Shown one piece after another: positions 8,165 through 58,419 of a stretch of 61,237 nucleotides of DNA. A program made the position numbers and the translations under genes. Location: the IMG/VR virus record IMGVR_UViG_3300025870_000001; one strand, 5' to 3'. Under the pieces are notes generated by a model that searched no databases, had not been told where the DNA came from, and worked only from the letters and a program-made list of their open reading frames with translations. Within the stretch, counting starts at the first letter, position 1. The number at the start of each line of letters is the position of its first letter. Source of the stretch: an uncultured virus (IMG/VR IMGVR_UViG_3300025870_000001). Lineage: Duplodnaviria > Heunggongvirae > Uroviricota > Caudoviricetes.

Positions 8165-8221
8165 TTTTAATTCCTATTTTAAGTTAAACCTCATCCTCCA
8201 GCTCAACTCTTCCTTTCTGTC
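8144..8221. repeat. 78-bp direct repeat, copy 1 (copy 2 at 8610-8687)
   Basis: aacatctacatg...cctttctgtc identical in both copies. Confidence 0.97.
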
Positions 8222-8400
8222 GATCCTAGTTCAGCCCCATCATAAAGACATTCTCATAAATGATACCATAGTATTAGTAAACCCTATTTTACGTCGATTA
8301 CTAATACTATGATGTTAGTTCAAATGTCCTTATGGTGGAGCTGTGGGGTACTGCCCCCCAGTCCAGTTCGTATTCGATTTGTTTCATCGATTACATCTTT
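8217..8400 (-). ncRNA. Truncated permuted tmRNA: tRNA-like domain plus intervening segment, no tag reading frame
   Basis: T-arm UGGGG-GGCAGUA-CCCCA, CAGCUCC-ACCA (CCA at 8335-8333), hairpin intervening segment, GGGGCUG-AACUAGGAUCGACAG from 8238; G3-U70 pair; 5' boundary approximate. Confidence 0.85.
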
Positions 8401-8402
8401 AC

Positions 8403-10576: not shown

Positions 10577-10785
10577 TATTTCATTCCCTTCACAAACGCA
10601 TCACCAGTTGCATTTGCAAAATCACTCATAGATTTTACTGCAATTTTTGTGAATGTTGTTTGGGCTTCAATAAAGGCCTTTAGTGGCGCAGACAAAGTTT
10701 CGTCTTTTACTAAAGTGTCAACCATTGTTTTCTTTGTAGTCTGGATATGGTCAATCCAGTAGTTTGTTGTCCAATCATTAATCAT
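10576..10785 (-). CDS. Small amphipathic helical hypothetical protein
   Basis: 69 aa, AGGAG RBS. Confidence 0.7.
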   Translation of the reverse strand: MINDWTTNYWIDHIQTTKKTMVDTLVKDETLSAPLKAFIEAQTTFTKIAVKSMSDFANATGDAFVKGMK

Positions 10786-10811: not shown

Positions 10812-10857
10812 TTCCCCCTAACCATGGGGGGAAGCGTGCTGATTAAGGAGCAACCCT
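10812..10857 (-). ncRNA. Unassigned two-hairpin RNA motif, copy A (candidate cis-regulator)
   Basis: AGGGU-UGCU-CCUUAAUC-AGCA-CGC-UUCCCCC-CAUGGUUA-GGGGGAA; covaries with 15800-15847. Confidence 0.65.
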
Positions 10858-10865
10858 ACAACTAT

Positions 10866-11219
10866 TTAGAAGCTGAATGATGCACCAATGCTAATATCAC
10901 CCATTCCCCACTCATCGTCTGTAGTGGTTTTTGTATATACTTCCAAGCCAGTTACTGAAGTTACTGGTAGTGTTACTTGATATTCCATACCTGTAAATTC
11001 AATATCTTCTAGATCCATAATATTTGGGCCAACTTCTACGTTAGCAATACCAAAATCCCATGTCAAATCAGTTTCAAATGTCAAAGCATTTGTTTCTGTT
11101 TCCATGTTTCTTTCTGCTTTAAATTCACTGTCTAATGATAGACCATTTCCTAATTCAATCGCTGCGGCCGAACTTGCCAAACCAAGTGCAACAACACTTG
11201 CTGTAATAAGAGTTTTCAT
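10866..11219 (-). CDS. Secreted small outer-membrane beta-strand protein
   Basis: Signal peptide, alternating amphipathic strands, C-terminal ISIGASFSF (terminal Phe). Confidence 0.7.
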   Translation of the reverse strand: MKTLITASVVALGLASSAAAIELGNGLSLDSEFKAERNMETETNALTFETDLTWDFGIANVEVGPNIMDLEDIEFTGMEYQVTLPVTSVTGLEVYTKTTTDDEWGMGDISIGASFSF

Positions 11220-11258
11220 TTCTGTATTTCCTTTGTTAAAATTCTTATAAATTAAAAT

Positions 11259-11580
11259 GTCACTACTTCTGTTGCTAGGTGAGTGACCAACCCCCTGTGG
11301 TTATGCTGCTAGAGCAAACTCAGATGGTGCAAAATTATCGTTTGCATTTGTAGTTTGTGGCTGAATAACGTAGGCCAACACGGTAATCTACTCTCATCTC
11401 TACACACCTGTCGATCCTAGTTCGCCCCCATCATAAATGCACTAACTTCGACTACCCATTCGGGCCATCTATGTTCTGCAAAACTTCCTGTTGCAGCAGG
11501 ACGCAGTGCATTTATGGTGGAGGCGTTGGGTACTGCCCCCAAGTCCAGTATGTATGTTGAATCGTATCAACAATTACAAG
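11259..11580 (-). ncRNA. ssrA: Permuted two-piece tmRNA, alphaproteobacterial type; tag ANDNFAPSEFALAA
   Basis: Acceptor piece UUGGG-GGCAGUA-CCCAA-CGCCUCC-ACCA (CCA 11517-11515), paired intervening segment, coding piece GGGGGCG from 11429, tag 11345-11301, terminal GCAACAGA hairpin; ends approximate. Confidence 0.95.
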
Positions 11581-11584
11581 TATA

Positions 11585-11613
11585 CTTATAACATAGTTTT
11601 CCATGTGCGTCAA
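11585..11613 (-). promoter_or_regulatory. Sigma70-type promoter of tmRNA
   Basis: TTGACG-N17-TATAAG. Confidence 0.65.
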
Positions 11614-11649
11614 TAGTTTTTCAACTTTTTAATACACATGGTATTTTTA

Positions 11650-12120
11650 TCACACTATCAGTTCGAAGTGTGGGCCATCAATAAATGGTCTGCGATTTTG
11701 AGAACGGCGCAAATCAATATATGCATTCATTGCATCTTCTGCTGTACCCTCATAAGAACGGATATCACCTTCTGACCATGCTGCTCCCCACTTGACTGCA
11801 ACACCCTTTTCTTCTGCTGCCTGCTTGAACGCATCGCAGATGTTATCGTATACATTAATTTCCCACACAACATCTGATCCATCGTAAGCTACGACATCAA
11901 CTGCATGTGAATATCCACTATCTTGAATAAGGTGTTTTGACTTCATAGTTTGAGAACGTCCAGATGCTACTAATTTTTCTTGCTCTTCGACCGTCCGAAC
12001 ACCATATGTGACTCCGAAATCAACCGAAGTCAATTCGATAGCACGTTCTACGACTGCGACCATATCTGGATGGACACCTTCTAATTTAACCTTTGATCTA
12101 TTTGATAATTTAAATGCCAT
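11650..12120 (-). CDS. M15-family (L-Ala-D-Glu) peptidase endolysin
   Basis: LSNRS..LEGVHPD, GVRT.EEQ, S.TMKSKH, HAVD, WG, FIDGPHFEL. Confidence 0.9.
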   Translation of the reverse strand: MAFKLSNRSKVKLEGVHPDMVAVVERAIELTSVDFGVTYGVRTVEEQEKLVASGRSQTMKSKHLIQDSGYSHAVDVVAYDGSDVVWEINVYDNICDAFKQAAEEKGVAVKWGAAWSEGDIRSYEGTAEDAMNAYIDLRRSQNRRPFIDGPHFELIV

Positions 12121-12122
12121 AT

Positions 12123-12746
12123 CTAATCCTTTTCTGTTTCTATAATATTATCATCTTCATCAACTTCTAATTCATGTTTTGCAAAATCCATACTTATATC
12201 TTCAATAGTAACACTAACATCATAATCATTCCAATTTGGAGTTTCCCCGCCGGGGCTTATATGTTCGTATTCTGTAGATATAGCAAATAGGATATCTTCT
12301 TCGTCTTTCTTTTCTTGATATTTTCCAAGATCAACTACCTTTGCAGTTCTATCTATACCAGACATTCTTTCTGCAATATCAATATTATCTTTCCGTTTTA
12401 GTTCTTCTAAAACACTCTTTAAAACGTTTTGTTCTTGGCTAACTTTTTTTAGAGATGTTACACCATCAACATCTTCTGGAAATAAGTTTGTTTCTCCAGA
12501 AAACCAACCAACATCTTCGCTTGAAAATGTCTTACCGTTATGATTATCTAATCGTAATGTTCCTCTCTTAATAAAATCATAACCAGAACTAATTAAAAAT
12601 TGTTCAACTCGTTCTAAAACATCGCCGATGATCATATCAGAAGCATCAACTGACATGCTCACTCGCATTCCTTCTCTACCATTTTCTCCTTCTACATAAG
12701 AAAACTCGAAATCTGCTTCAAAGGTATCTTCAATATCCATTATCAT
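12123..12746 (-). CDS. Acidic hypothetical protein
   Basis: 207-aa ORF in operon. Confidence 0.65.
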   Translation of the reverse strand: MIMDIEDTFEADFEFSYVEGENGREGMRVSMSVDASDMIIGDVLERVEQFLISSGYDFIKRGTLRLDNHNGKTFSSEDVGWFSGETNLFPEDVDGVTSLKKVSQEQNVLKSVLEELKRKDNIDIAERMSGIDRTAKVVDLGKYQEKKDEEDILFAISTEYEHISPGGETPNWNDYDVSVTIEDISMDFAKHELEVDEDDNIIETEKD

Positions 12747-12749
12747 CTC

Positions 12750-13556
12750 CTATAAATAATTATCTAAACTATTTTCTGCTTTATATCTTGCGATATTGTT
12801 TTTATTGTGTTCCACATCCTTACTATGTATAAAAGGCATTTCAGAACTAATAGTATAACTAGTTTCGCCTGGGCGTTTGATCTTCCATTCTAGATCGGCA
12901 TCTTTGGGATAATTCATATCCCATTCACAAGTGGAATTTCTATTCATATACTTTCTATCTTTTTTGGTTATTGGATAGATATACCTAAATTGTTTTCCCC
13001 ATACTCTAGAAAAACCCAACTCGCCCATTTTTTCATCATTTGGCCTTGGCCCATACTTCAAATCATCACGGCCCATTTCCTTTTTCATTTTTCTTTGTAT
13101 AGTTCTGAAATGAACTTTTTCGCCCTTATCAGTGACATATACATCGCTCCATATAAATCCCCCATGTAAAAAATTAGCAGATTGATAGACATAGCCAGGC
13201 TTGCCTACAATACCATCTGCCCAAGTATACAGAAATTTTATATCTGGAGTATTATCTCTCATCCATTTTACTGTTTGAGACAACATCTGACTCTCTGAAT
13301 TTCTTGGCATAGATTCGTCCATACACATTTTGCCAATTTCAAAATAATCTTTTGTAGTCAATTCTGGAAACATTTTCTTAATTGTTCCCATAGGATTTGT
13401 TCCCCATCCTAATGTCAGCACACCAACTAATACATCTTTATCAAAAAACCCAAGATAGTGTTTAGTCAATCTAGGCATAACAGCAGAATAATGCCTCTCT
13501 GCAACAAACAGAGAGGCTGTATTCTTATGAAGTTTTTTGATATTGAAAGTTACCAT
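12750..13556 (-). CDS. Mom-like (GNAT-fold) adenine modification enzyme
   Basis: RHYS, EIGKM..PRNSES.ML, YTWAD..G..GYVYQSANF pattern of the Mu Mom family. Confidence 0.72.
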   Translation of the reverse strand: MVTFNIKKLHKNTASLFVAERHYSAVMPRLTKHYLGFFDKDVLVGVLTLGWGTNPMGTIKKMFPELTTKDYFEIGKMCMDESMPRNSESQMLSQTVKWMRDNTPDIKFLYTWADGIVGKPGYVYQSANFLHGGFIWSDVYVTDKGEKVHFRTIQRKMKKEMGRDDLKYGPRPNDEKMGELGFSRVWGKQFRYIYPITKKDRKYMNRNSTCEWDMNYPKDADLEWKIKRPGETSYTISSEMPFIHSKDVEHNKNNIARYKAENSLDNYL

Positions 13557-13819
13557 CAGGCATCCTTCATCATGAATGAACGTTGTTTCTTTGGATCGCC
13601 CCAGACTTCACGAGCATTAATTTTAATCTTTCTACGATTAGTTTCATTCTTGTTTGGATTGTCGATAGTCAAAACAACATTCCTACCTTTTGACCACGCT
13701 TGGCGCTGTCTTAGTGCATGTTCCAAAGTACCCTTTGCACGTTTAGTACATCCAGACTTTGCAACATTTCTACGTTCACCTTTAGAAACGTATTGATCTC
13801 TTGATTTTTTACCAGCCAT
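13556..13819 (-). CDS. Basic hypothetical phage protein
   Basis: YVSKGER, AWSKGRNVVLTIDNPNKNETN; coupled overlaps. Confidence 0.7.
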   Translation of the reverse strand: MAGKKSRDQYVSKGERRNVAKSGCTKRAKGTLEHALRQRQAWSKGRNVVLTIDNPNKNETNRRKIKINAREVWGDPKKQRSFMMKDA

Positions 13820-14115
13820 TAACCTAATCCTCTCGCCCAGCTTTGAAGACGTTCAAATCTAAATGAGCGCCATCCTTCTTTTTCTAAATCCCAAACTACA
13901 ATAAGATTATCATCTTTTTCTTTTGGAATATCACCTTCTGCCTCAGTTGGATTATCAGGATATGGAATCATACGTGGATTTGTAGTACACATCATATCAC
14001 GAATAGTTCCATCAGCCTTTTCAAACTTTACAAGGCACTTTCTTTTTGACAGATCTTCCTTTAGTTGACTTCGCTTTGCTTCGTCCACTACTACTTCGTT
14101 TTCGTTTTCCGACAT
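13819..14115 (-). CDS. SH3-fold/WYL_2 (DUF2693)-like protein
   Basis: V.FEKADGTIR.M.CT and VWDLEKEGWRSFR. Confidence 0.75.
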   Translation of the reverse strand: MSENENEVVVDEAKRSQLKEDLSKRKCLVKFEKADGTIRDMMCTTNPRMIPYPDNPTEAEGDIPKEKDDNLIVVWDLEKEGWRSFRFERLQSWARGLG

Positions 14116-14644
14116 CTTTAGTTTCCTTTTTACTTTCTATAACATCATCTCTAATTTTTTCAAAGTGTTTCCAATGTTTGGGTGTATCATTGTAACGTCC
14201 ATTATACAATATATTCCAGTCTTTGTCAATAGAATTCCAATACATCAAATGAAAGTTTTCTGCTTTGGTTTTTGCCTTTGCATATATCATATCGCCAGGA
14301 AATTCTAATTTTTCATAAATTAAAGAATCATCAAACTTTGCCTTGGGTGTTGGTTTTGGATATTTTTTTAAAACTGGTTGTGCGGCCTTGGTTTTGGGTG
14401 GGCGGTCATAATACACAGTTTTATTCTGTGGAATAGTCCACTTTTCATCTTCCTGTTCCAGCGCCTTTTTCTTATCGGCCTCAATTTGTGCCTTTGTTCT
14501 GCGCTTGCGTTTGTTCTTCACTGGAGATTTTTTTGGCGTGTCTTCTTCCAAATGGTCAAAGATATCACGAAACTTTGGTGTCGCTGCTCGAGCGGCTTCC
14601 ATTTCTGCTTTAGTTCTGCGTTTTCGTTTAGGTTTCTGAGTCAT
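14021..14644 (-). CDS. Lys/Arg-rich hypothetical protein
   Basis: Two KRKRRTKA repeats; overlaps next gene by 95 nt. Confidence 0.65.
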   Translation of the reverse strand: MTQKPKRKRRTKAEMEAARAATPKFRDIFDHLEEDTPKKSPVKNKRKRRTKAQIEADKKKALEQEDEKWTIPQNKTVYYDRPPKTKAAQPVLKKYPKPTPKAKFDDSLIYEKLEFPGDMIYAKAKTKAENFHLMYWNSIDKDWNILYNGRYNDTPKHWKHFEKIRDDVIESKKETKDVGKRKRSSSGRSKAKSTKGRSVKKKVPCKV

Positions 14645-14888
14645 CTTTTTTTCTTCCTAACAGATTTTGTTGCTGTTTGTCCAACAACTGGTCACGAATA
14701 TCAACAACACTTTCGTTGTTAACCATATCAATTATTAAATTAGTAAGATTTATTTCTTGATTCAGATAGTATACTTTTTGTTTCAACTTGTCAAGTTGTT
14801 TTAAGTAATATTCCAATTCTTTTTCTTTTCTGACTTTTTGTTCAATATAGTCAGTAAGCAAAATTAATTTTTTTTCTTTTTCGGTCAT
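14628..14888 (-). CDS. Coiled-coil hypothetical protein
   Basis: 86-aa ORF. Confidence 0.65.
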   Translation of the reverse strand: MTEKEKKLILLTDYIEQKVRKEKELEYYLKQLDKLKQKVYYLNQEINLTNLIIDMVNNESVVDIRDQLLDKQQQNLLGRKKDDSET

Positions 14889-14906
14889 TACAATTCCAAT
14901 ATTAAA

Positions 14907-14982
14907 TGGTGCCCGTCGAGAGACTTGAACTCCCGACCTACTGATTACAAATCAGTTGCTCTACCAACTGAGCTAGACGGGC
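14907..14982 (-). tRNA. tRNA-Thr(UGU)
   Basis: GCCCGTC acceptor, ACTGA-TTTGTAA-TCAGT, TTCAA loop, encoded CCA. Confidence 0.96.
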
Positions 14983-15162
14983 CTATTTAAGTGTCATCTC
15001 AATTTTAACCAGTACTACACTACCATCAATTTCCATTGCAGCAAAAGTGTCTGCTTGTTGAATTCCCATTTCTTTAAAATTTTTAGTAGTTGATAAACGA
15101 ATGTTGCCGTCACTATCAGTGTTCCATGTATCTTTATTTGCTGTCACTTGATTTCTCATTAT

Positions 15163-15447
15163 TTACTCCATATTATAAAAAGTATATTCACATGTTATTT
15201 CTTCACCCGACCTAATGTCTCTGGTCGCCACGATAAAGTATCTACTGTCTCTTCTAACCTTTTCTATGTTAGGTTCGCTAGAATGGTTGTAGAATGCGCC
15301 TATAGGGGTTCGTATTAGTTCTTCCCCCCAATGAAAGTGAGACATACCTAATTCAGTACCCTTTGCAATTGGTTTACATGCAAACAGTCCTAGTCCTTCA
15401 ATATCAGAATTATGAATTGTTAAAAAGTCTGGTAAAGGTTTATACAT
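15163..15447 (-). CDS. SET-domain protein
   Basis: S.IEGLGLFA..I.KG, FYNHSSEPN, ATRDI.SGEEIT..Y. Confidence 0.9.
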   Translation of the reverse strand: MYKPLPDFLTIHNSDIEGLGLFACKPIAKGTELGMSHFHWGEELIRTPIGAFYNHSSEPNIEKVRRDSRYFIVATRDIRSGEEITCEYTFYNME

Positions 15448-15459
15448 CTTTTTCTTTCT

Positions 15460-15534
15460 TGGCTCCGGCGGTAGGGGTCGAACCTACGACCAATTGATTA
15501 ACAGTCAACTGCTCTACCACTGAGCTACGCCGGA
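15460..15534 (-). tRNA. tRNA-Asn(GUU)
   Basis: Cloverleaf, anticodon GTT, CCA. Confidence 0.96.
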
Positions 15535-15541
15535 ATGTTTT

Positions 15542-15618
15542 TGGTCGGAGTTAGAGGATTCGAACCTCTGACCCTCTGCTCCCAAAGCAGATGCGCTACC
15601 AGACTGCGCTAAACTCCG
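15542..15618 (-). tRNA. tRNA-Pro(UGG)
   Basis: Cloverleaf, anticodon TGG, CCA. Confidence 0.96.
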
Positions 15619-15799
15619 TTTCTTGTTAAAAGATCGAGAACAACATTTAATTCATAAATTGCTTTATCTAAAACTAAATGTGCAGTTTGATTATCATTCT
15701 TTTTCTTTTCTTCGTGAAGAAACTCTAATCTTACCTTTATATAGTCTTCTGCTTCAGGTTTGCTTCCTCTACGCATAATATATCCTCATTTTATTGGTT

Positions 15800-15847
15800 G
15801 TGGGATTAACCATGATCCCACGCGCACTTATTAAGTTCAGTGACCCT
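15800..15847 (-). ncRNA. Unassigned two-hairpin RNA motif, copy B
   Basis: AGGGU-CACU-GAACUUAAUA-AGUG-CGC-GUGGGAU-CAUGGUUA-AUCCCAC. Confidence 0.65.
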
Positions 15848-15902
15848 TTTGTGTGTCTTCTGCGACATTGCAAGGTAACAACACTTGACCTTTATTAATG
15901 TG

Positions 15903-16105
15903 TAGGTGGGATTTAGGAATACCCACAATTCCAGAATGATACATCCTCTATCAAACTATCTGAAAAGCCTCATATCAAACTAGTTAGGTTTGAAATCTAG
16001 CACTCCCTGTCTCCAGAGTCTACCAGTGTCACTACAACTATGAGCCAAGTTAGGGGCTGTATTACCCCCATTTCCTTGCACTACAATCCCTACTCCGTCG
16101 AGTTT
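15903..16105 (-). ncRNA. ~200-nt structured RNA in tRNA cluster, possibly manA motif
   Basis: Multiple helices, GAGA tetraloop, terminal GUGGG/CCCAC hairpin; immediately 3' of tRNA-Gly; family call from recollection only. Confidence 0.55.
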
Positions 16106-16117
16106 GGATTTTTTATT

Positions 16118-16191
16118 TGGAGCGGATGGAGAGAATCGAACTCTCGGCTTTAGATTGGAAATCTAAGGTATTACCATTATACGACATCCGC
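16118..16191 (-). tRNA. tRNA-Gly(UCC)
   Basis: GCGGATG acceptor, anticodon TCC, U73-CCA. Confidence 0.96.
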
Positions 16192-18792: not shown

Positions 18793-18852
18793 TTATTCAC
18801 CTATAATTACGATTCGTATATAGTTTACGATATTTTAATCACAATGTCAAGT

Positions 18853-19972: not shown

Positions 19973-20041
19973 AACGAATCACTTTCCTTTTTGAGTACTC
20001 TTATATAATATCAAATGATAACCTGCGTGTCAAGGGCCCTG

Positions 20042-23394: not shown

Positions 23395-23941
23395 AGTTGA
23401 TTATACAGGGCTTTGTGGCCCACGTCAAGGGCTTTTGCCAAAATAATTAAAGAATCTTAGCGAATTCTAAGAAACTTTTTGAAACATTTCGTGAGATAAT
23501 CTGCCGGAGGGCCCGCCGAGACGACTCAGAAAATCCTCTGGGGATTTGGTAAACTTCTAAGAAATCAGGCTAAAGTCTCAAAAGCTAGAGTCTGCAGCTG
23601 ATTCGCAAAAACCATATCCCTAAGAATCCCATATTTTCCCATTAATCTCCAATAATTCTCTAAGATTGTATCTGATTCTCTAGTGCAATTTCTTCCTGAT
23701 AGTCTCTCAGAAATCTCTCTGCAATTCTTCTATCAGATGTCATCACAAGTAATTTTCCATCCTTATCATAGGCTATAGAATATTCTCTATGTTTTCTTAT
23801 ATAACCTATGCTATTCTTCATAGATCTTTCCATACAATCTCTAATGGATCTACCAGTATAAGTACCATACCCAATAGCAATCCAAACAGAATTACTCTGA
23901 ATATTTCTTCTTTACGGATCATCACATATTCCTTTCATATT

Positions 23942-27732: not shown

Positions 27733-28245
27733 CTAAAGGATTGCTGCGTATGCCCATTCGGGGTGGGTTGACTTGGCTCTTCCATTTGCGACTCCATCTG
27801 CTCCAAAACTTGCTGCCCAACTCTCTGGTTTTAGTTTTGGTTCTATTCCTGTCATACCTAATACATAACCAGCTGCCTCTTGTGCAACACAATTGCTTCC
27901 ATGTTTTGGATCTGTGTTGATATCAAGATGCACCTCAACCTCATATTCATCAATAAACGGTATCACCTGATGATACAGCTCACATACTTTTCTCACCTCA
28001 TTCAATAATCTCATTTTTGGTCGTGATTTCTTTATGTCAAAGTCTTTTTCGTATGAGATGTTAGAAAATATCTTACATCCTTTGTTTCCATTCATATGCA
28101 CAATCAAAACAGTAGCATATCTGGCCATACGAGTGCCTTTTTTGTCTATAAACCTGATGGAATCGCATCCAAGGTATACTTTTGTGTCTGTAGATAGTTT
28201 TGAGAGTAAATCTACCAAGTTTTCTATGTCAAATTCTGTTAGCAT
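27733..28245 (-). CDS. RNase H-like YkuK (DUF458) family protein
   Basis: VYLGCDS, ATVLIVH..G..G, RLLNEV, EVHLDIN..SN, AAS..AD. Confidence 0.8.
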   Translation of the reverse strand: MLTEFDIENLVDLLSKLSTDTKVYLGCDSIRFIDKKGTRMARYATVLIVHMNGNKGCKIFSNISYEKDFDIKKSRPKMRLLNEVRKVCELYHQVIPFIDEYEVEVHLDINTDPKHGSNCVAQEAAGYVLGMTGIEPKLKPESWAASFGADGVANGRAKSTHPEWAYAAIL

Positions 28246-28246
28246 A

Positions 28247-28780
28247 TCATCTCCACTTAGGATTTGGGTAAAATTTGGTATCATCTCCATCATTGTCGAA
28301 CAGATACCAACAACTATTGTCTTTTCCAGTGTGTTTACTGTCTTCTATCCACTTGACACGCCCAATTGATACTACCTTTCTACAGAGTGGTAGAAATGGC
28401 ACTGCCTGTTTGGTATGAATCCAATCAGCATCAAACAAAAACCATGTTGGTTTCTGTCTAGAGAAATGTTCTATCATCGGATGGAGTAACCACCTAGACC
28501 AAGGCGGATTTGTGATAATTATATCTGTCGCATCTGGTACTTGTACATCAAATGCGTCCATTTGGCCAACCCAATCACATTGTGGCTCAATATCTGTGTG
28601 GCCCATAGAAACACCAGACGATAGTTTGTGCAAAAACTCCACGAGTCTACCGTCACCGGCACATGGTTCATAGAATTTGAATGGATTTTTTGGTAAAAAT
28701 GGAATGAGAGGCATAACAGCTGCCTCTGGGGTCGGGTAAAAATCATTTTTTCTGTGTTCGAATACGCTTCTTTTACCCAT
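28247..28780 (-). CDS. Amino (N6-adenine-type) DNA methyltransferase
   Basis: DFYPTP, EPCAGDG (motif I), IITNPPW (motif IV). Confidence 0.85.
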   Translation of the reverse strand: MGKRSVFEHRKNDFYPTPEAAVMPLIPFLPKNPFKFYEPCAGDGRLVEFLHKLSSGVSMGHTDIEPQCDWVGQMDAFDVQVPDATDIIITNPPWSRWLLHPMIEHFSRQKPTWFLFDADWIHTKQAVPFLPLCRKVVSIGRVKWIEDSKHTGKDNSCWYLFDNDGDDTKFYPNPKWR

Positions 28781-31360: not shown

Positions 31361-32332
31361 TTATTTCTCTTTAATTTGTCTTTCGAATTCTCTTAGACGT
31401 TTGTATACACTCGCCAATTCAATAATAGTTGGCCAAGCCTTTAATAGATATTGCATAGAACCTTCTACTCTACCAAATGCACGAATAATTTGTTGCATCA
31501 CTCCTAATGTGACTACACCGGCAACTATCGCAGGAGCAAGAAATACATATGCACTCAATACATTTGCCTGAAGATATGCTACTCTGCCTACATTAAAGTA
31601 TAGGTATCTTATATATGATTTAAAATGGATGCCTCTGACATCTTGAAACAACTCATTGATTGTCTTGGGCCTGACAGTTTCATCATCTTCTGCGATAACT
31701 AATATCTTGCGATATGCTGCTTCTTTCTTTTGTAGGTCATACTCTACTCCTACTAGACGCAACAACCAACCCAATCCAACTAAAAATAATGTGCCGCCAA
31801 TGCTCCAAACCAATGCACCTGTCACAAGGCCATACTGCCAATCTCCGAAGAAGAAGATAGGAATGCCTATGCTCAGTCCAAGTAGAATAGGCACAAACTG
31901 CACTAAGACCATAATAGATTCTATGAAACTAGTTCCAAGACTTTCCATAATTCGACTGAATTTGATTGTGTCTTCTTGTACCCTCTGGGCTGCACCTTCA
32001 ATTGTACGTGCCTTGTCGTATACAGAGTGATACCATTCTACCATGGCAGTTCGCCATCTGAATAGAAAATGTGCGGTGAAAAAACTAATTGCAACTGCGA
32101 TTGCAACATATATTGCGGCAAGGTATATAAAACTACCTAAACTAGCCCAATATTCTGTGATTGTGATTGCATTAGGTTCTCCCAATGCTTTTTGGATCAT
32201 GTCGTAAAACTGCCCAAACCATTCATTTATTTTTACATCAATTTGTACTTGTACCCAAAGTGATGATAAGATTATTGCAGAACCAATCCAACTCCATAAT
32301 AACCACTTCTTTTCAGTATAAAATCTAAACAT
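31361..32332 (-). CDS. SbmA/BacA-like peptide transporter
   Basis: INEWFGQFYDMIQKAL, FRWRTAM, IEGAAQRVQEDT, EAAYRK.LV..ED, W.TIIEL.SVYKRLREFE. Confidence 0.9.
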   Translation of the reverse strand: MFRFYTEKKWLLWSWIGSAIILSSLWVQVQIDVKINEWFGQFYDMIQKALGEPNAITITEYWASLGSFIYLAAIYVAIAVAISFFTAHFLFRWRTAMVEWYHSVYDKARTIEGAAQRVQEDTIKFSRIMESLGTSFIESIMVLVQFVPILLGLSIGIPIFFFGDWQYGLVTGALVWSIGGTLFLVGLGWLLRLVGVEYDLQKKEAAYRKILVIAEDDETVRPKTINELFQDVRGIHFKSYIRYLYFNVGRVAYLQANVLSAYVFLAPAIVAGVVTLGVMQQIIRAFGRVEGSMQYLLKAWPTIIELASVYKRLREFERQIKEK

Positions 32333-35465: not shown

Positions 35466-35641
35466 GCCTGTATTGCTGCCTGTTCATCAACCCAAGCGTC
35501 ATATTCGGCAACTTCTACTTGTTTGCGTTGCATCATGCGTTCTAAATCTGTTATCGCCATCCGTTTCTCATCAGACGCACCCTCTTGTAGTGCAATGATA
35601 ACATTTTCTAGAATTTCAATCTCTTGCATTGTGTCAATCAT
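35441..35641 (-). CDS. Small early protein
   Basis: Behind promoter and AAAGGTGATTCG leader. Confidence 0.65.
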   Translation of the reverse strand: MIDTMQEIEILENVIIALQEGASDEKRMAITDLERMMQRKQVEVAEYDAWVDEQAAIQAWMEGTQI

Positions 35642-35702
35642 GTCGAATCACCTTTCTCATTACATATTCATTATTGCATATCTACGGGTCAATGTCAAGG
35701 GC

Positions 35703-36032: not shown

Positions 36033-36092
36033 TATATATCTCCTTTTTACACTTCACTTTAACATATGATTCGGGCAATGTCAAGGGCTAAT

Positions 36093-37431: not shown

Positions 37432-38553
37432 TTAACTCCCTTCATAGATCCTGTTGTGAGTGTCATGACACATGACAAATGTTGTACATTTATTTAGTCT
37501 TTTTAACTCATCCGCGCCCACGTAAGTACAAGTACTTCTAATGCCCCCTAGAATATCTTGGATTGTCTTTGCCACCTCTCCACGATATGGTACTAAGACT
37601 TCTCTACCTTCCGATGAACGATATTCTTTAAGTCCACCAAAGTGTTTATCATTTGCAGCCTTACTGCTCATACCGTAGAACTGCACAAACTGTTTTTTAT
37701 CGTAAACTGGAGCATAATATCCATCTCCTTCATCAAGGAGTTCATTCGATTCATATGTTTTAGTTATTACTTCACCACCACCTTCATCATGTCCGGCAAG
37801 CATACCACCCAACATTACAAAGTCTGCACCACCAGCGAATGCCTTGGCTACATCACCAGAGCATGTACACCCACCATCAGCAATGATATGCCCACCAAGG
37901 CCATGGGCAGCATCAGCACATTCAATAACTGCCGAGAGTTGTGGATAACCGACTCCAGTTTTGATACGAGTAGTACAAACACTGCCAGGCCCAATACCCA
38001 CTTTAACAATATCGGCTCCATTTAAAATTAACTCCTGTGTTTGATCTGCAGTAACAACATTCCCTGCAATGATTACAATATCTGTATAAAGAAGTCTAAA
38101 CTCTTGGATAAAGTTTACAAATCTTTCAGTATATCCATTAGCAACATCAATACAAACATATTTAAGTTCTTTTCCGACATTATCATAGACAGTTTTAAAC
38201 TTATTTAAATCTGAGTCAGAAATACCAATAGACATTGCAACATATTCTCTTCTCTCCCACATTTTACTATCAAAGTAACTAATGAGTTCCGATGATGTGT
38301 ATGTTTTTTTGAGACATGTCATTATCTCACCTTCAGCGAGTTTATCTGCCATTTCAAATGTGCCCACGCCGTCCATGTTTGCCGCAATAATAGGTACACC
38401 CTCAAAATCTGGCGGGCAGATGTTTTCTGCGTTATAATTTCTGTAATTAAACTGTCTCACAAGAGAAACTTCTTTTCTACTAGTGAGAGTAGAGCGTTTA
38501 GGTCTGATTAACACATTCTTATAGTCTAATTTGATATCAGGTTCAATTCTCAT
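37432..38553 (-). CDS. guaC: GMP reductase
   Basis: [53 protein letters not shown]. Confidence 0.95.
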
Positions 38554-44138: not shown

Positions 44139-47100
44139 ATGTCAGATACAAATCTTACAACTTCAATACAGGCTATTCGCACGAAAATCCTTAACGATAT
44201 TACGACTGCGACAGTAGACCAACTACTTTCTCTTTCCAGAGCAGCAAAATCTGTAGGACTAACAGAAGATAGTGATATTGAAAATGCGGTAAATTCTAGA
44301 GTAAATGCACTTTCTTCTGGTGCAACTACAGAAGAGATGGTAAAATTATCGAATGCTATCAAACAAGTAAGAAATTCTTCTCAATCTGCCCTATCTCCCT
44401 CTGCAACCTCAGATGATATTGTTGAAGGAACTACAAATAAATTCATGTCTGATGCTAATTTGCAGGCATTGGGTTCTGCAATTATTCCGGCAACAGATGC
44501 TACACATGACTTGGGCTCTCCTACAAATAAATTTAGAGACTTATATCTAGACAACAACACTCTATACTTTGGTACTACTCAATTTACATCAGATGACATT
44601 CTCAACTTCGATCTCTCAGTACAACCAGAAACATTAGAAATTCAAGTATCGGCAGACGAAGCAGGCCATGGAACACATTGGGATTGGACATGGACACAAT
44701 CTGCACTTCCATATGCACGTACAGCCATTACTGAAACGCCACTGAATGTCGTACCTTTGTATATGCAGGGCACATATCAAATCAACAACTTTGCTAATAC
44801 TCAATATGGGTCAATGACGCAACCCCATTCATTTAAATTGAAGTGGATTGAAGGTGCTGGAAACGACAACCTAGTTTCATGGGCAACTACAACTACAGTA
44901 AACCACAGTCATCCAGATATCAATGGTGGAAATTCAACAAGCGTTGAGAGACTAGCAGTAAATGTTCCATCTACAATCACACCACCAACTCTCACAGCAC
45001 CGGCTGTCACATATACTGTTAGTTCTACAACAGGTGCATATGTATTCTCTGGAACTGCGATGGGCAACAATCCAGAAATTGGCCCATTCTATAGAGGCGG
45101 CACATATACAATCAATATCAATGCTTCTGGACACCCATTCTACTTCACAACAGATAATGGAACAAACTTTGCAGCTAATACATATTTCGGAGAATATACG
45201 AATGGCGTGACTGGTTCTCGCACTGATAATGGTACAATTACATTCACAGTTCCTGCTGGAGCACCTGATGTATTGTATTATCAATGTGGCGTTCATAGTG
45301 CAATGCGAGGCACAATTCGTGTTAAAGATCTTGCAGTAGAAACCAATGCAAATGGTAACTACTTGATTTATGGACAGCATACACAAGAAAGTCATGCACA
45401 AACTATCGAATTGCGTCCTATTCCTACACTCACATCTCAGATGTGTCTCGTATACGATTCATCAACAAACAAATTCGTTCCACAAGACTTATCGACATAT
45501 GTAGAAAATACTCCGGCGTTTGAGAATAAGATTAAAGAGGTTGCTGGTACTGCAACTCTGATTGCACCAGATGGCACATCTTTGGTTGCATCTGTCAATA
45601 TCTATAGTGATGCAACATATTTACCGGCTGTAGGAAATACTGTTGGTGACATTGCATTTGTAGAAGATACACAGAAACTATACATTTACAAAGCCACTGG
45701 TTGGATTGAAACAGTCGCCAATGCAGACTTAACAGGGCTTGCAACAGAAGCATTTGTACAGAACTATGTTGCAAACAATGTCTCAGGTGGAAATGTTGTA
45801 GAATATACATCAACAAACACTGCAGCAACAAATGATATTGTGATGTTGAATTCTGACGGTACTGTTACTGTAGTTGAGCCTACAAATTATCCATTCGATC
45901 AACAGACTGCTATAGATTCTCAAATGACTAGTGGATCTATCGCAGATTTAAACAATAGAGGTATGATAGCCCATCATTCCACCAGAGAAAAAGGAATGTT
46001 AATTTTCCCTGGCGGCACTGGACATAATGACCGTACAATGTTAGTTGTATTTTCAAGAAATGGATCGGGAATATCAAAAGGAACGCCATTTTCTTCGGGA
46101 GAACCTATCAATAACTTTAAAGATCAACATGCATTCTTTGGGCCCGCTGGAGCACATGAAGACAAATTTCTATATCTTGGAGCAGCATCAAGTGGAGGCA
46201 ATTTAAATGTAGGTACTGGAAATATTACAGGAACTACTGTAAACACAACTGGCACAGATAGTTCGGCGGCATATAGCGATTCAACTAATAACGGACAATT
46301 GGATATTAGTATAAACGGCGGCGGCGCTGGGAACATGGCCATTGATCACGGTGGGTTTAGTGGAACAGTTTTAACTCTTTATCTAAAATTTCTTGGTGCT
46401 AATGGCTATCCAGCAGTAAGAAAGTTTACTTACGATTTCGCAAATCAATACTTAGATCGCAGTTTTCCCGAAATAGAACTTTCAACATCGGAAGCATTTG
46501 AATGGGAACACACCGCGATTGACCCATCAACTCCAACTAGAATTGCTTTATATAGACAAGAGGGATCGACTTCTACTCGCAGAGGTATAATTAAATTTGC
46601 TGATGTAGATTGGGATGCCGGAACTATTAATATAGGCCCAGCAGCAGATTTATTTACAAGAAGTGGAAGTCACAATGTAGATGCGTATGAAATTCAAAAC
46701 AAACAAGCATTCCATCCAACTAATGGATTGCTTGCCGCAGTTACAACATCTCCGGCTGATGGCGGTGGAGATGCACCATACAGATTAAAAGTTGCTCTAT
46801 ATAGCGCAGATGTAAATCTTAGTATTACTAATGTAAGTGGAAACTTAACTCTTATGAATGGGGCCAATGTCAAAGTTGGTACAGTAATAGGTAATATTGC
46901 ATGGACTAAAGGTAGTAATACAGGAAGCACGCCAAACGCGCCGCTATTGATTACACCAATTATATCCAATCAAATTGGTTCTAGTCCACAGACTCGATAT
47001 CTACAATACGATAATTCTGGAAATTATATCACACAAACATTTGATAGTAATACATTTGATTCGGGAAGTATGTGGACATATTCAAGTCCTTTCAACGATG

Positions 47101-55773: not shown

Positions 55774-58419
55774 ATGCCGGTTAATTTTCCAAACAGCCCA
55801 TCAAACGACGATGAACATAGCGCAAACGGACTAGTATACAAGTATAATTCTACAAAAGGTGCTTGGAAGAGAAAATTTGTTGCACCCACAGATGCAACAG
55901 ATATCAATCAACTAAACGATTCTAGTGGACTGCTTACAAGCAGTTCAACGACCGTTGTTGCTGATATGGCTGCGTTAATTGCACTTACAGGAATGTCTAG
56001 TGGCGATCAGGCATATATCACGGCAAATAACAAGTTATATTTTTACAATGGTTCTGGTTGGTATTTGATTGCGACTGTCCAAAATGATGCGCCAAGCGCA
56101 ATCACTGGAGTTAATGGAACATATGAACTTGCAATTGATGGTACTGCAACTACTATTACCGCTGTGTCTACAGACCCAGAAGGATTCCCTCTGACATGGA
56201 GTTCTTCAACATCTGGTTTAGGTTCTATTGCAACTGTTTCGAACACAGATAATGTTTTTACAATCACCCCAAGTACTACTGAAGCAGATGCTGGTACATT
56301 TACTTTAACCATCAATGCAACAGATGGTGCTAATGGTGCAGTAAGTACATCTACAAACTTAACTTTAAATTTTATTGTTATAGTTACAAACAGCAGATAT
56401 ACTACCTTATTAGCGACAGCAACTGGTACAAGTGATAATAATAACATCACTGATAGCTCCTCTAACAACCATAGCATCACAGTAAATGGTGATGCCCACG
56501 CTGGTACGTTTAGCCCTTATCGTAGTGGAGGTTATTCAACTTATTTTGATGGAACTGATCGTGTTTACTTAACTAATGATATGAGTGTAGCACTAGGCAC
56601 CAGTGAATTTTCAATGGAAGCGTGGATATACAGGACAACAACCGATGCAGATGAAAACGTAATTGTTAATGGCCCCAGCAATGACTACGGCTGGGGATTA
56701 GCAATTTCTGGAGGCAAAATACGAGCGAGATTTCACAATACTAACTTAATATCGGGAGCCACAACAGTATCTCCAAATGAGTGGCATCACGTTATGATTG
56801 CAAGAACCTCATCTAACGAATTATTAATTTTCTTAGATGGAACACTGGACGCTCGCAGCACATCCTCTTCAATAAATTATAATGCAACTTCAGCAACTCT
56901 TACTATAGGGAGTTATGGTGATAGGACTGGTGCGGTCAGCTTTGGATTCAATGGCTATATACGTGATGCAAGGGTAATTGTAGGATATAATACTTTTCCC
57001 CACGGATCTTATGGCACTTCTGTTGGAATTAATTACTTCACCCCACCATCTGAACCATTAACTGCTGTTTCTGGAACAGAAGCTTTACTTTGTGGGTTGC
57101 CATATCATGGTGACCTCTCTTCAAACGGTCATTCTGTTTCTGAGACTGGAGGTGCTGTCACAAAACCATTCTCACCATACGACTCTATTGAATACTCTGT
57201 AACAGATCACGGCGGGTCTGTGTATTTTGTGGGAGGTGCTAATTTTTCATCCCAATATTTAAGTCTTTCTGGCCCTACTATGCCATCTGGAGATTTTACT
57301 CTATCGACATGGGCATATTTAAAATCTAACGGATCCGATACTACTCTTATTGATTTTAACGGAAACTCTGATGGTTTTCGTATAATTTACATGAATACCG
57401 GATCTAATTATCATTTTAGATTTTATGTTGGGCCGGGAGGATCGGTATATCTTTATGACTCAACAAGTGCACATCCTCTTAACCAGTGGCATTATATAGT
57501 GGTGGTTAGGAGTTCGGGAACATTTAAACTTTATGTTAATAACAAATTAATGGGTACTAGCACTGCTAATCCAACTTTTTCTAGTTCTAATAATGTTAGA
57601 ATCGGTCAAGGGTTAAATGGATATGGTACATTAGAAGGCTATCTTAGTGACATAATATACAACCCTACTACTGCTATTACAGATTTTACTCCACCTACTG
57701 CTCCTCAATCTTCAACTGGCACAACATTACACATCAAAGGCGCAGACGCTTCGATCATAGATAAATCTCAAGTAAATAATATTAAAATGAACGGGCCTAC
57801 AACTGGTTCTGCCACTAAATCTGCGTTTGGCTCTGAACCAACAATAAGTTTTGCGTCTGGATCTAATACCAACAGGTATTTAGAATTTGATCCTACTGTT
57901 TTAAAGTTTATGGAAATTTTAGGACAACCATCTATACCATTTACTATCGAAGGAATTTGGGGTTGGCAGGGCAGTACGGCTTCTCCTATTTTTGAAATTT
58001 TTCAAGATACAAATAACTTCTTTTATTTTGGAGGAGGGCCCGGTAACACTCAGAGTGGTATAAGTACGGACATGAATTTGTATGCTATATTTAAGATTGG
58101 CGGCGTAGAAAGATTTAAGATGACTGCCGGTATTGGTAGCTACTACAATGTCGGAAGTTCTTTTAAGCATCAAGCAATCACTAGAAATTCTTCAGGGGTA
58201 ATGCAGCATTACTATGATGGACAATTAAGACCAAATACTATAACACATTCTGGAACTGACACAGTGAATTGGGCTAGTCCAGTAGGATATGTTGGTCGTT
58301 CAGATTGGATGGGTATATATGGCAGATATGAAGGTTACATACACCAAGTAAGATTAACTGTAGGTCTAGCAAGATACACCGCAAACTTTACACCACCAAC
58401 AGCATCATTAGAAGGATAA
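55774..58419 (+). CDS. Fibre/adhesin with LamG/ConA-like domains
   Basis: FSMEAWIY, WHHV..R, GYI.D.R, ARYTANFTPP. Confidence 0.85.
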   Translation: MPVNFPNSPSNDDEHSANGLVYKYNSTKGAWKRKFVAPTDATDINQLNDSSGLLTSSSTTVVADMAALIALTGMSSGDQAYITANNKLYFYNGSGWYLIATVQNDAPSAITGVNGTYELAIDGTATTITAVSTDPEGFPLTWSSSTSGLGSIATVSNTDNVFTITPSTTEADAGTFTLTINATDGANGAVSTSTNLTLNFIVIVTNSRYTTLLATATGTSDNNNITDSSSNNHSITVNGDAHAGTFSPYRSGGYSTYFDGTDRVYLTNDMSVALGTSEFSMEAWIYRTTTDADENVIVNGPSNDYGWGLAISGGKIRARFHNTNLISGATTVSPNEWHHVMIARTSSNELLIFLDGTLDARSTSSSINYNATSATLTIGSYGDRTGAVSFGFNGYIRDARVIVGYNTFPHGSYGTSVGINYFTPPSEPLTAVSGTEALLCGLPYHGDLSSNGHSVSETGGAVTKPFSPYDSIEYSVTDHGGSVYFVGGANFSSQYLSLSGPTMPSGDFTLSTWAYLKSNGSDTTLIDFNGNSDGFRIIYMNTGSNYHFRFYVGPGGSVYLYDSTSAHPLNQWHYIVVVRSSGTFKLYVNNKLMGTSTANPTFSSSNNVRIGQGLNGYGTLEGYLSDIIYNPTTAITDFTPPTAPQSSTGTTLHIKGADASIIDKSQVNNIKMNGPTTGSATKSAFGSEPTISFASGSNTNRYLEFDPTVLKFMEILGQPSIPFTIEGIWGWQGSTASPIFEIFQDTNNFFYFGGGPGNTQSGISTDMNLYAIFKIGGVERFKMTAGIGSYYNVGSSFKHQAITRNSSGVMQHYYDGQLRPNTITHSGTDTVNWASPVGYVGRSDWMGIYGRYEGYIHQVRLTVGLARYTANFTPPTASLEG

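Follow-up and report, generated by a model that had tools for sequence, protein, structure and literature searches.

A structured RNA motif present twice in the window

The window, by which we mean the whole 61,237-nucleotide (nt) stretch analysed here, comes from an uncultured virus (IMG/VR record IMGVR_UViG_3300025870_000001) and carries on its minus strand two copies, A and B, of a small RNA motif. Each copy consists of a 5' tail, a first stem (P1) that closes loop 1, a short linker, and a second stem (P2) that closes loop 2 (Table 1). The gene for a two-piece transfer-messenger RNA (tmRNA) lies about 350 nt upstream of copy A; between them is the open reading frame (ORF) P0001, whose stop codon is 8 nt ahead of the copy. 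Copy B sits within a transfer RNA (tRNA) cluster, with tRNA-Gly (16118-16191) upstream and tRNA-Pro (15542-15618) downstream. The original prediction, made from the letters of the window alone, had described both copies, and a direct read-out of the window returned exactly the sequences and coordinates that it gave. It had also placed each copy shortly before the ATG of a small ORF; we found that these start codons, at 10785 and 15776, follow hairpin 2 by 26 and 23 nt, respectively. AGGAG or GAGGA precedes each of these start codons, and at both copies the Shine-Dalgarno sequence is 8-15 nt outside the motif fold. Immediately 3' of P2, copy A continues with UUUACAC and copy B with AACCAAU.

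Table 1. Positions of the two motif copies, their parts, and the neighbouring genes in the window
Feature	Position	Strand	Details
Copy A	10857-10812	minus	covariance model 59.7 bits, expect value (E) 1.9e-14
Copy A, tail	10857-10853	minus	AGGGU
Copy A, P1	10852-10849 with 10840-10837	minus	
Copy A, loop 1	10848-10841	minus	CCUUAAUC
Copy A, linker	10836-10834	minus	CGC
Copy A, P2	10833-10827 with 10818-10812	minus	
Copy A, loop 2	10826-10819	minus	CAUGGUUA
Copy A, predicted pseudoknot pairs	A10857-U10846, G10856-C10847, G10855-C10848	minus	
Copy B	15847-15800	minus	covariance model 60.0 bits, E 1.6e-14
Copy B, tail	15847-15843	minus	AGGGU
Copy B, P1	15842-15839 with 15828-15825	minus	
Copy B, loop 1	15838-15829	minus	GAACUUAAUA
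Copy B, linker	15824-15822	minus	CGC
Copy B, P2	15821-15815 with 15806-15800	minus	
Copy B, loop 2	15814-15807	minus	CAUGGUUA
Copy B, predicted pseudoknot pairs	A15847-U15834, G15846-C15835	minus	
Two-piece (permuted, alpha-type) tmRNA gene	11210..11628	minus	Rfam RF01849 126.9 bits, RF04321 118.8 bits
P0001	10866..11219	minus	117 amino acids (aa); signal-peptide-like N-terminus, C-terminus ...GASFSF*
P0002	10576-10785	minus	69 aa; first small ORF after copy A
P0004	10355-10576	minus	73 aa; MSNKNPFEIR...; second small ORF after copy A
P0003	15609..15776	minus	55 aa; starts 23 nt after copy B; putative coding

The occurrence of both copies is far beyond chance. The pattern AGGGT-N4-N{6,12}-N4-CGC-N7-CATGGTTA matched the window at copies A and B only and gave no match in 100 dinucleotide shuffles, while the octamer CATGGTTA by itself is unremarkable (4 matches in the window against 2.6 expected). 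A covariance model built from the relatives described below, run over the whole window with filters off, scored A and B at about 60 bits, and its next-best match at 8.7 bits; neither this model scan nor inspection revealed a similar module in the other intergenic gaps of the window. Minimum free energy (MFE) folding recovers both hairpins in A and in B. Folding of the single sequences gives modest z-scores (A, -0.8; B, -2.5), and the case for structure therefore comes from comparative data.

The 270 nt between tRNA-Gly and copy B (15848-16117, minus strand) contain no ORF longer than 33 aa and fold well (z -2.8 to -4.2), with 15896-15950 weakly matching the 3' part of manA RNA (E 0.13). A hairpin in this gap, GUGGGUAUUCCUAAAUCCCAC, shares its arms with P2 of copy B, and an alternative pairing is thus possible for that copy.

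The motif defines a widespread family of phage RNAs

Relatives were collected with four pattern scans of viral contigs. In the first, both stems and loop 1 were left unconstrained, and 119 loci were found. A perfect P1 of 4 base pairs (bp) together with at least 6 of the 7 P2 pairs occurred in 74 of these instances (51 distinct), and all 74 had a loop 1 resembling xCUUAAUM, although the pattern did not specify loop 1; the unpaired remainder of the loci looked random. Three further scans freed loop 2, then the 5' tail, and then the linker, with at least 120 matches each. Together, the four scans yielded at least 179 distinct relatives with flanks, so that the homologues which the original prediction had proposed to look for proved to be many.

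The family consensus begins 5' with N-G-G-K-U, followed by the 4-bp P1 closing loop 1 (x-C-N'-U-A-A-U-A), the linker C-R-Y, the 7-bp P2 closing loop 2 (C-A-Y-G-G-U-U-A), and then mostly A. The motif is about 47 nt long, more than 20 of the 47 positions are invariant and unpaired, and P2 begins 3 nt past P1 in every aligned member. For loop 2, CACGGUUA is more frequent among the matches listed than the CAUGGUUA of the window.

Each of the 11 stem pairs shows changes on both sides in a set of 74 distinct sequences, which had a covariation score of 0.862; shuffles gave 0.287 (none of 500 reached the observed value), and slid partners 0.12-0.26. For a second set, of 77 distinct rows, the score was 0.778 against 0.212. 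As the sequences were chosen for pairing, the percentage paired is circular, but the variety of pair types is not. The family alignment thus upholds the earlier proposal that the RNA is genuinely structured, its stems covarying and its loops invariant. From these results, we conclude that copies A and B are members of a widespread structured RNA family of marine and freshwater phages.

The first half of the motif is predicted to form an H-type pseudoknot

The comparison of family members also brought out a pairing between tail and loop 1 that was absent from the original prediction. The first base of the tail covaries with the third position of loop 1: AGGGU occurs with xCU..., CGGGU with xCG..., GGGGU with xCC..., and UGGUU with GCA.... 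Among the 77 distinct rows, this pair was A-U in 36, C-G in 20, G-C in 9, G-U in 3, U-A in 3, and another combination in 5. The second tail base and the second position of loop 1 were G and C in 76 of 76, and the third tail:loop-1 position was paired in only 21 of 76. The alignment behind the counts for the first pair came from a model without any pseudoknot. On the strength of that covariation, the first half of the motif is therefore predicted to be a compact H-type pseudoknot: stem 1 would join the tail to loop 1, K-U would cross P1, and UAAUA would form the third loop. The full order is then a tiny H-type pseudoknot, C-R-Y, and the 7-bp hairpin with its loop CAYGGUUA.

A different contact, between UAAU of loop 1 and GUUA of loop 2, had been suggested in the original prediction, and it found no support in covariation. 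In a scan that forced loop-2 position 7 off U (to C, G or A), A5 of loop 1 remained A in 15 of 15 true instances; likewise, loop-1 position 4 varies while A8 of loop 2 is invariant. The two inner pairs never vary. Two other pairings were considered and rejected. Inspection of the flanks gave nothing consistent for a helix that would close AGGGU with the 3' flank, and a tail-to-linker pairing, suggested by MFE folds, fitted poorly, with tail G4 changing to U against the invariant linker C.

The family matches no catalogued RNA

The original prediction could not assign the motif to a family, and we found that no Rfam 15 family matches it. The gathering-threshold scan of the whole window returned only tRNAs and the two-piece tmRNA; a scan of A and B with 100-nt flanks at E <= 10 returned nothing on the motif, neither a riboswitch nor a ribozyme class. 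Weak matches to manA and RAGATH-35 fell beside the motif and far below threshold. A tRNA or armless tRNA was rejected as well: in its standard, relaxed and two mitochondrial modes, ARAGORN never called the motif (6 of 6 test stretches), and it called the flanking tRNAs in the same stretches. ACCA follows P2 in only 3 of 156 instances among the matches listed.

Two scans of 185,579 prokaryote species, represented by one genome each, contained no true copy of the motif. The first scan was without a match; the single match of the second, looser one lies inside an oxidoreductase gene with its stems unpaired and is attributable to chance, and a host copy or antitoxin-like repeat was rejected because these scans gave no true match. 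A blastn search against named phages found nothing besides tRNA similarity. Literature searches on the loop words and on RNAs of T4-like tRNA clusters returned nothing on the motif, and the text on tmRNA, riboswitch and terminators in the Melnitz paper does not mention it (PMC9004378). Since the literature searches found nothing on the motif, we regard the family as new as a family; its kind has precedents, both in knotted small RNAs from viral tRNA regions and in additional stable RNAs from phage tRNA clusters.

The absence of a match to known ribozyme families also bears on the idea of a new small ribozyme that cleaves itself and thereby cuts a polycistronic transcript, which we consider highly unlikely. 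We take its size, pseudoknot, invariant unpaired bases, low copy number, variable context and phage habitat to resemble those of twister, pistol and hatchet, and the placement at junctions between RNAs would suit such a role. Against it, we found no closed multi-helix junction or second long-range pairing, and contigs from RNA libraries run across the motif, though such contigs are compatible with cleavage.

Carriers of the motif

The window phage is T4-like and has genes for gp32, PhoH and a Mom-like protein; the identity of its gp32 to that of cyanomyophages reaches 53% at most, and its alpha-type two-piece tmRNA is as in the Melnitz/pelagimyophage group, according to the tmRNA passages of PMC9004378. 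Among the large carrier records, one is a close relative (89% gp32 identity), three represent distant lineages of T4-like phages (51-56%), and one, of 107 kb, has no gp32 match. The motif is also present in an unrelated group of large Rhodobacterales phages. Three carriers are cultured: Methylophilales phage Melnitz (43.9 bits), which grows on an OM43 strain, Rhodobacter phage RcXuper (31.4 bits), on Rhodobacter capsulatus, and Ruegeria phage RpAliso (28.9 bits), on Ruegeria pomeroyi. All three keep the pseudoknot pairs, and the motif, which spans 46558-46609 in Melnitz (MZ577097.1), 13625-13676 in RcXuper (OP186293.1) and 12635-12686 in RpAliso (OR257569.1), is annotated in none of them.

At E <= 0.01, a single match was found in each of five viral records that are 90-100% complete and in the complete genome of each of the three cultured phages; the window and its nearest record contain two each. 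A prefiltered model search gave no match in HTVC008M, P-RSM4, S-CAM1, KVP40, pv27, MD18, DSS3P8, Phosso or RHph_N38, and for MD18 the result was the same with filters off across its tRNA region.

Annotated coding sequences (CDSs) touch the motif in two of the cultured phages. In Melnitz (MZ577097.1, 46492-46593), a hypothetical CDS overlaps it on the opposite strand, and in RpAliso (OR257569.1, 12509-12637), a CDS extends into its first bases; both are likely over-calls.

The motif accompanies RNA genes and unrelated protein genes

A tRNA or tmRNA gene on the same strand lies within 1.2 kb of the motif in 5 of 5 large records, and in three of the five the motif is inside arrays of 24-28 tRNAs. 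Among the matches listed, tRNAs occur within 250 nt, and always on the same strand, in 15 of 101 distinct instances; the gaps are 3-6 nt to upstream tRNAs (8 cases) and 4-20 nt to downstream tRNAs (11 cases). In RcXuper and RpAliso, the motif lies 3 and 7 nt before tRNA-Ile, within arrays. The window, viral record G002 and Melnitz have in common the order tmRNA, small ORF, motif. In Melnitz, a genuine glutamine riboswitch, a separate element, is found 115 nt upstream of the motif.

The motif is co-oriented with its neighbours throughout, and downstream ORFs are on the same strand. Where it lies between protein genes, it is 0-28 nt past a stop codon and mostly 17-30 nt before a start codon. The commonest gene upstream encodes a small secreted-type protein ending in G-x-x-F-x-F*, in about 22 of 114 distinct instances among the matches listed; genes of this type, like P0001, are still a minority among upstream neighbours. 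The 94 distinct downstream proteins listed fall into many unrelated families (the largest clusters have 11, 11, 8, 7 and 5 members) and include a clamp-loader subunit, a desaturase, Hsp20, cytochrome c, membrane proteins and small proteins. This set contains 7 distinct P0002-like and 5 distinct P0004-like proteins; the order P0002-P0004, also seen in contig L486, is a recurrent neighbour pair that is far from universal.

The original prediction had taken the motif for a riboswitch-like leader of the small ORFs. The unrelated downstream proteins, the copies in tRNA arrays and the single match per genome leave this proposal without support, and it is undercut further by the finding that only 64 of the 179 listed instances have a U-run after hairpin 2. 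The many families of the downstream genes make a riboswitch for the small ORFs unlikely, and we conclude that the small ORFs after A and B are neighbours rather than riboswitch targets. More generally, a riboswitch or a free-standing ligand aptamer, with the pseudoknot and loop 2 as pocket and P2 as terminator or gate, seems to us improbable. It would account for the invariant unpaired positions and for a compact pseudoknot typical of small aptamers; P2 followed by a U-run would be the terminator, and single-copy riboswitches do occur in this phage group, that of Melnitz being an example. Yet there is no consistent expression platform, as 115 of the 179 listed instances lack the U-run and the Shine-Dalgarno sequence is outside the fold; moreover, the 11 downstream tRNAs and the lack of any Rfam riboswitch class even at E <= 10 argue against it.

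A TATAAATA-like box that ends 3-10 nt upstream of the motif was found in 18 of the 179 listed instances, and box and U-run together in 11. These signals bear on a role in transcription control through a protein or RNA polymerase, either as a factor-dependent terminator or as an antiterminator, similar to put RNA, at the entry to the RNA-gene region. The motif has two adjacent hairpins with conserved unpaired bases and presumably resembles put RNA; it is co-directional with transcription, has one or two matches per genome, and is frequently at the boundary between a U-run and a late-promoter-like box. Its distance to promoters is not conserved, however, and it is often in mid-array among tRNAs rather than at the array head, so that we give this explanation, too, little weight.

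The single match per genome, and the shuffled, hyperplastic regions with variable neighbours in which the motif is found, could also be explained by action at the DNA level: the motif could be an origin or a hotspot of recombination, or else a mobile cassette comparable to the PeSL elements known from T4-type phages. Weak contig joints at the motif borders also fit this idea. It is nonetheless extremely unlikely, given the strict co-orientation with transcription, with no opposite-strand tRNA in the 15 listed arrays, the G-U pairs counted among the accepted pairs on the sense strand, and a predicted pseudoknot whose covariation is meaningful in a single strand only. The joints in question occur in contigs from RNA libraries and skip exactly the P0002 gene (10578-10788) or motif A plus P0001 (10809-11266). 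They hint at cassette-like variants; their matched side is just 20 nt.

Possible functions of the motif RNA

What we observed is the fold with its covariation, how the motif is distributed and oriented, how many matches each genome has, and in which contexts they lie; on these grounds, the motif looks more like a gene for a small RNA than like a switch that controls the small genes next to it. We tentatively favour, at somewhat less than even confidence, the reading that it is a self-contained small phage RNA unit that is released by processing and binds a conserved factor. This reading draws on the single match per genome, the strict orientation, the independence of context, the tRNA-like spacing and the deep conservation across unrelated types of phage. 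It also has a precedent in T4, whose small stable RNAs rnaC and rnaD occupy a similar slot after tRNA-Arg, and agrees with the lack of a true match in the two prokaryote scans. We infer the steps of excision, stability, action in trans and a partner as follows. The motif would be transcribed with the phage tRNA, tmRNA and small-ORF region and in its direction. The enzymes that mature the flanking tRNAs or mRNAs might then release the motif RNA; alternatively, it might end at its own P2 and U-run. The knot and the GC-rich hairpin would confer resistance to nucleases, and the conserved loops would bind a conserved factor, probably one supplied by the host. Contigs from the RNA libraries of four studies span copies A and B.

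Several points weigh against this reading. The contigs attest presence in RNA libraries, not RNA ends, and DNA carry-over is possible. Neither a promoter-like box nor a U-run is found in 108 of the 179 listed instances; for most instances, release would then depend wholly on the predicted processing. The placement 17-30 nt before start codons fits a role in cis equally well. The sets used for stem covariation were pre-selected for pairing. Because the close relatives MD18 and DSS3P8 gave no match, the motif is dispensable. Finally, a search for a phage-encoded partner by co-occurrence brought none to light. Six protein clusters, three of them nucleic-acid-related (PF04308, PF10902 and PF06568), were present in 4 of 4 T4-like carriers and 0 of 3 non-carriers, but no cluster tracked the motif once the Rhodobacterales phages and KVP40 were added.

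Three candidate partners were rejected in that comparison: RpAliso lacks WYL_2 and KVP40 has it; DUF1127 occurs in DSS3P8 but in neither RcXuper nor RpAliso; and the YkuK-like protein also occurs in four phages without a motif match. The YkuK/DUF458 gene, which encodes an RNase H-like protein (PF04308), adjoins a peptidyl-tRNA hydrolase gene and tRNA arrays in RpAliso, MD18 and RcXuper, and is also found in KVP40-like phages and in the window at 27733-28293. It seems to be linked to large phage tRNA sets.

The main rival to a released, factor-binding RNA is a punctuation or protection element acting in cis, in which the pseudoknot and hairpin would block a 5'-to-3' exoribonuclease, or entry at the 5' end, and so shield the 5' end of the downstream tRNA or mRNA. 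We judge this to be possible, though on the unlikely side. Its build resembles that of coremin (see below): a tiny H-type pseudoknot with a U/A-rich third loop, a C after the second stem, and then a hairpin. The motif is, moreover, always just ahead of a functional RNA, either a tRNA 4-20 nt on or a start codon with a Shine-Dalgarno sequence, mostly at 17-30 nt, and it often follows a stop codon by 0-28 nt or a tRNA by 3-6 nt, where cuts are expected. The late-promoter-like box seen in 18 of the 179 listed instances would put the motif at the very 5' end of a transcript. On the other hand, with a single match per genome just one junction would be protected, and other gaps of the window are without such a module. 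The U-run right after P2, in 64 of the 179 listed instances, would cut off the RNA that follows; in many instances, a TATAAATA-like box lies between motif and ORF; loop 2 is strongly conserved, in contrast to the free loop of the second coremin hairpin; and the YGAD loop and CUAC spacer that define coremin are absent. The reading also supposes RNase J in the hosts, which presumably have it.

A bolder possibility, which we regard as unlikely, is that the family represents a new class of small RNA. This could be a nuclease-proof 'aptamer gene' cut from tRNA or tmRNA precursors that sequesters a conserved host factor or a small signalling molecule, or the bacterial world's first RNA to resist exoribonucleases, from which a stable decoy would result, as with the subgenomic flaviviral RNAs (sfRNAs).

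Whatever its role, the motif adds a strongly conserved, covariation-supported RNA fold, missing from the catalogues, to the surroundings of the translation-related RNA genes of phages. Its carriers include both marine T4-like phages that have diverged deeply (gp32 51-56% identical to that of the window) and unrelated Rhodobacterales phages. Because three carriers are cultured, its job is directly testable. Were it shown to act in trans as a decoy RNA, or to be the bacterial equivalent of the viral knots that block exonucleases, phage RNA biology would gain a new part; both outcomes also bear on why the tRNA clusters of phages hold extra stable RNAs, a question of long standing.

Other features of the window

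The small ORFs next to the motif gave few matches. Pfam and PHROG contain no family for P0001, P0002 or P0004, and in tblastn searches against named phages, P0001 and P0002 had no match and P0004 one distant match. The last 10 nt of P0003 overlap tRNA-Pro, and P0003 is retained with 3 amino-acid changes in one related contig; its coding status is doubtful.

A second, partial tmRNA-like element lies at 8165-8402 (minus strand). It matches RF01849 at 8217-8367 (62.5 bits, model positions 85-169 only), and the gap, which contains ...CUCCACCA, folds unusually well (z -6.2). Owing to this element, the window phage may have two tmRNA-derived genes.

A recurrent GCCCTTGACA box followed by a TATAAT-like box occurs in five minus-strand gaps (36033-36092, 35466-35702, 23395-23659, 19983-20041 and 18793-18852); the two boxes look like sigma-70-type early promoters that share an upstream GCCC. 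Unusual cargo genes encode an SbmA/BacA-like transporter (31361-32332, E 6.6e-138), an IMPDH/GMP-reductase-like enzyme (37432-38553), a SET-domain protein (15163-15447), which is located within the tRNA cluster, and a Mom-family protein (12750-13556). The product of 55774-58419 (plus strand) is a probable tail-fibre protein with concanavalin-like lectin domains (Laminin_G_3, E 2.7e-38). It also matches the family of the clostridial neurotoxin lectin-like N-terminal receptor-binding domain (E 1.2e-13), which reflects a shared fold, not a toxin.

Comparison with known systems

The closest likeness in build is to coremin (xrRNA-C), which, with a Watson-Crick variant, is described from plant, fungal and insect RNA viruses in three papers (Dilweg, Gultyaev and Olsthoorn 2019, PMC6546385; PMC10321173; PMC10520033). 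As set out in the last of these, coremin has a first hairpin of 3-5 bp with the loop YGAD or YGNNAD, a spacer GUUAAACUAC whose CUAC pairs to that loop, and a second hairpin with a free loop (PMC10520033). Coremin and our motif share a tiny H-type pseudoknot whose stems measure 3-4 bp; the first loop has 1-2 nt, and the third, 5-6 nt long, is rich in U and A (UAAUA in the motif, GUUAAA in coremin). Both then have a C and a hairpin within 1-3 nt, the second hairpin that the coremin rules call for being present in the motif, and both occupy non-coding gaps upstream of RNA that should persist. The differences from coremin as described there are equally clear. The YGAD or YGNNAD loop is absent from the motif, where K-U and the P1 arm lie between the strands of the first stem. 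The spacer GUUAAACUAC is absent too: only its U/A-rich part is similar, there is no CUAC, and the C comes after the second stem. In the motif, unlike coremin, the covarying 4-bp stem is the second and the 2-3-bp stem the first, and the second hairpin has a conserved 8-nt loop where that of coremin is free. The hosts of the motif are bacteria, which are without Xrn1.

The glutamine riboswitch of marine phages (glnA RNA, RF01739) is similar to the motif in that it is small, pseudoknotted, single-copy in the same phage group, and found in the tmRNA neighbourhood. The motif differs from it in matching neither RF01739 nor RF01704 and in having no recurrent downstream gene. The rnaC and rnaD genes of T4 (species 1 and 2 RNA), which follow tRNA-Arg with gaps of 1 and 6 nt, offer a parallel in placement. 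They are longer (139 and 119 nt, as against about 47 nt) and not homologous to the motif, for which the model scored no more than 7 bits in the T4 tRNA region with filters off. What they have in common with it is their situation: like the motif, they are non-tRNA RNAs that lie in a tRNA cluster, on the same strand and at tRNA-like spacing.

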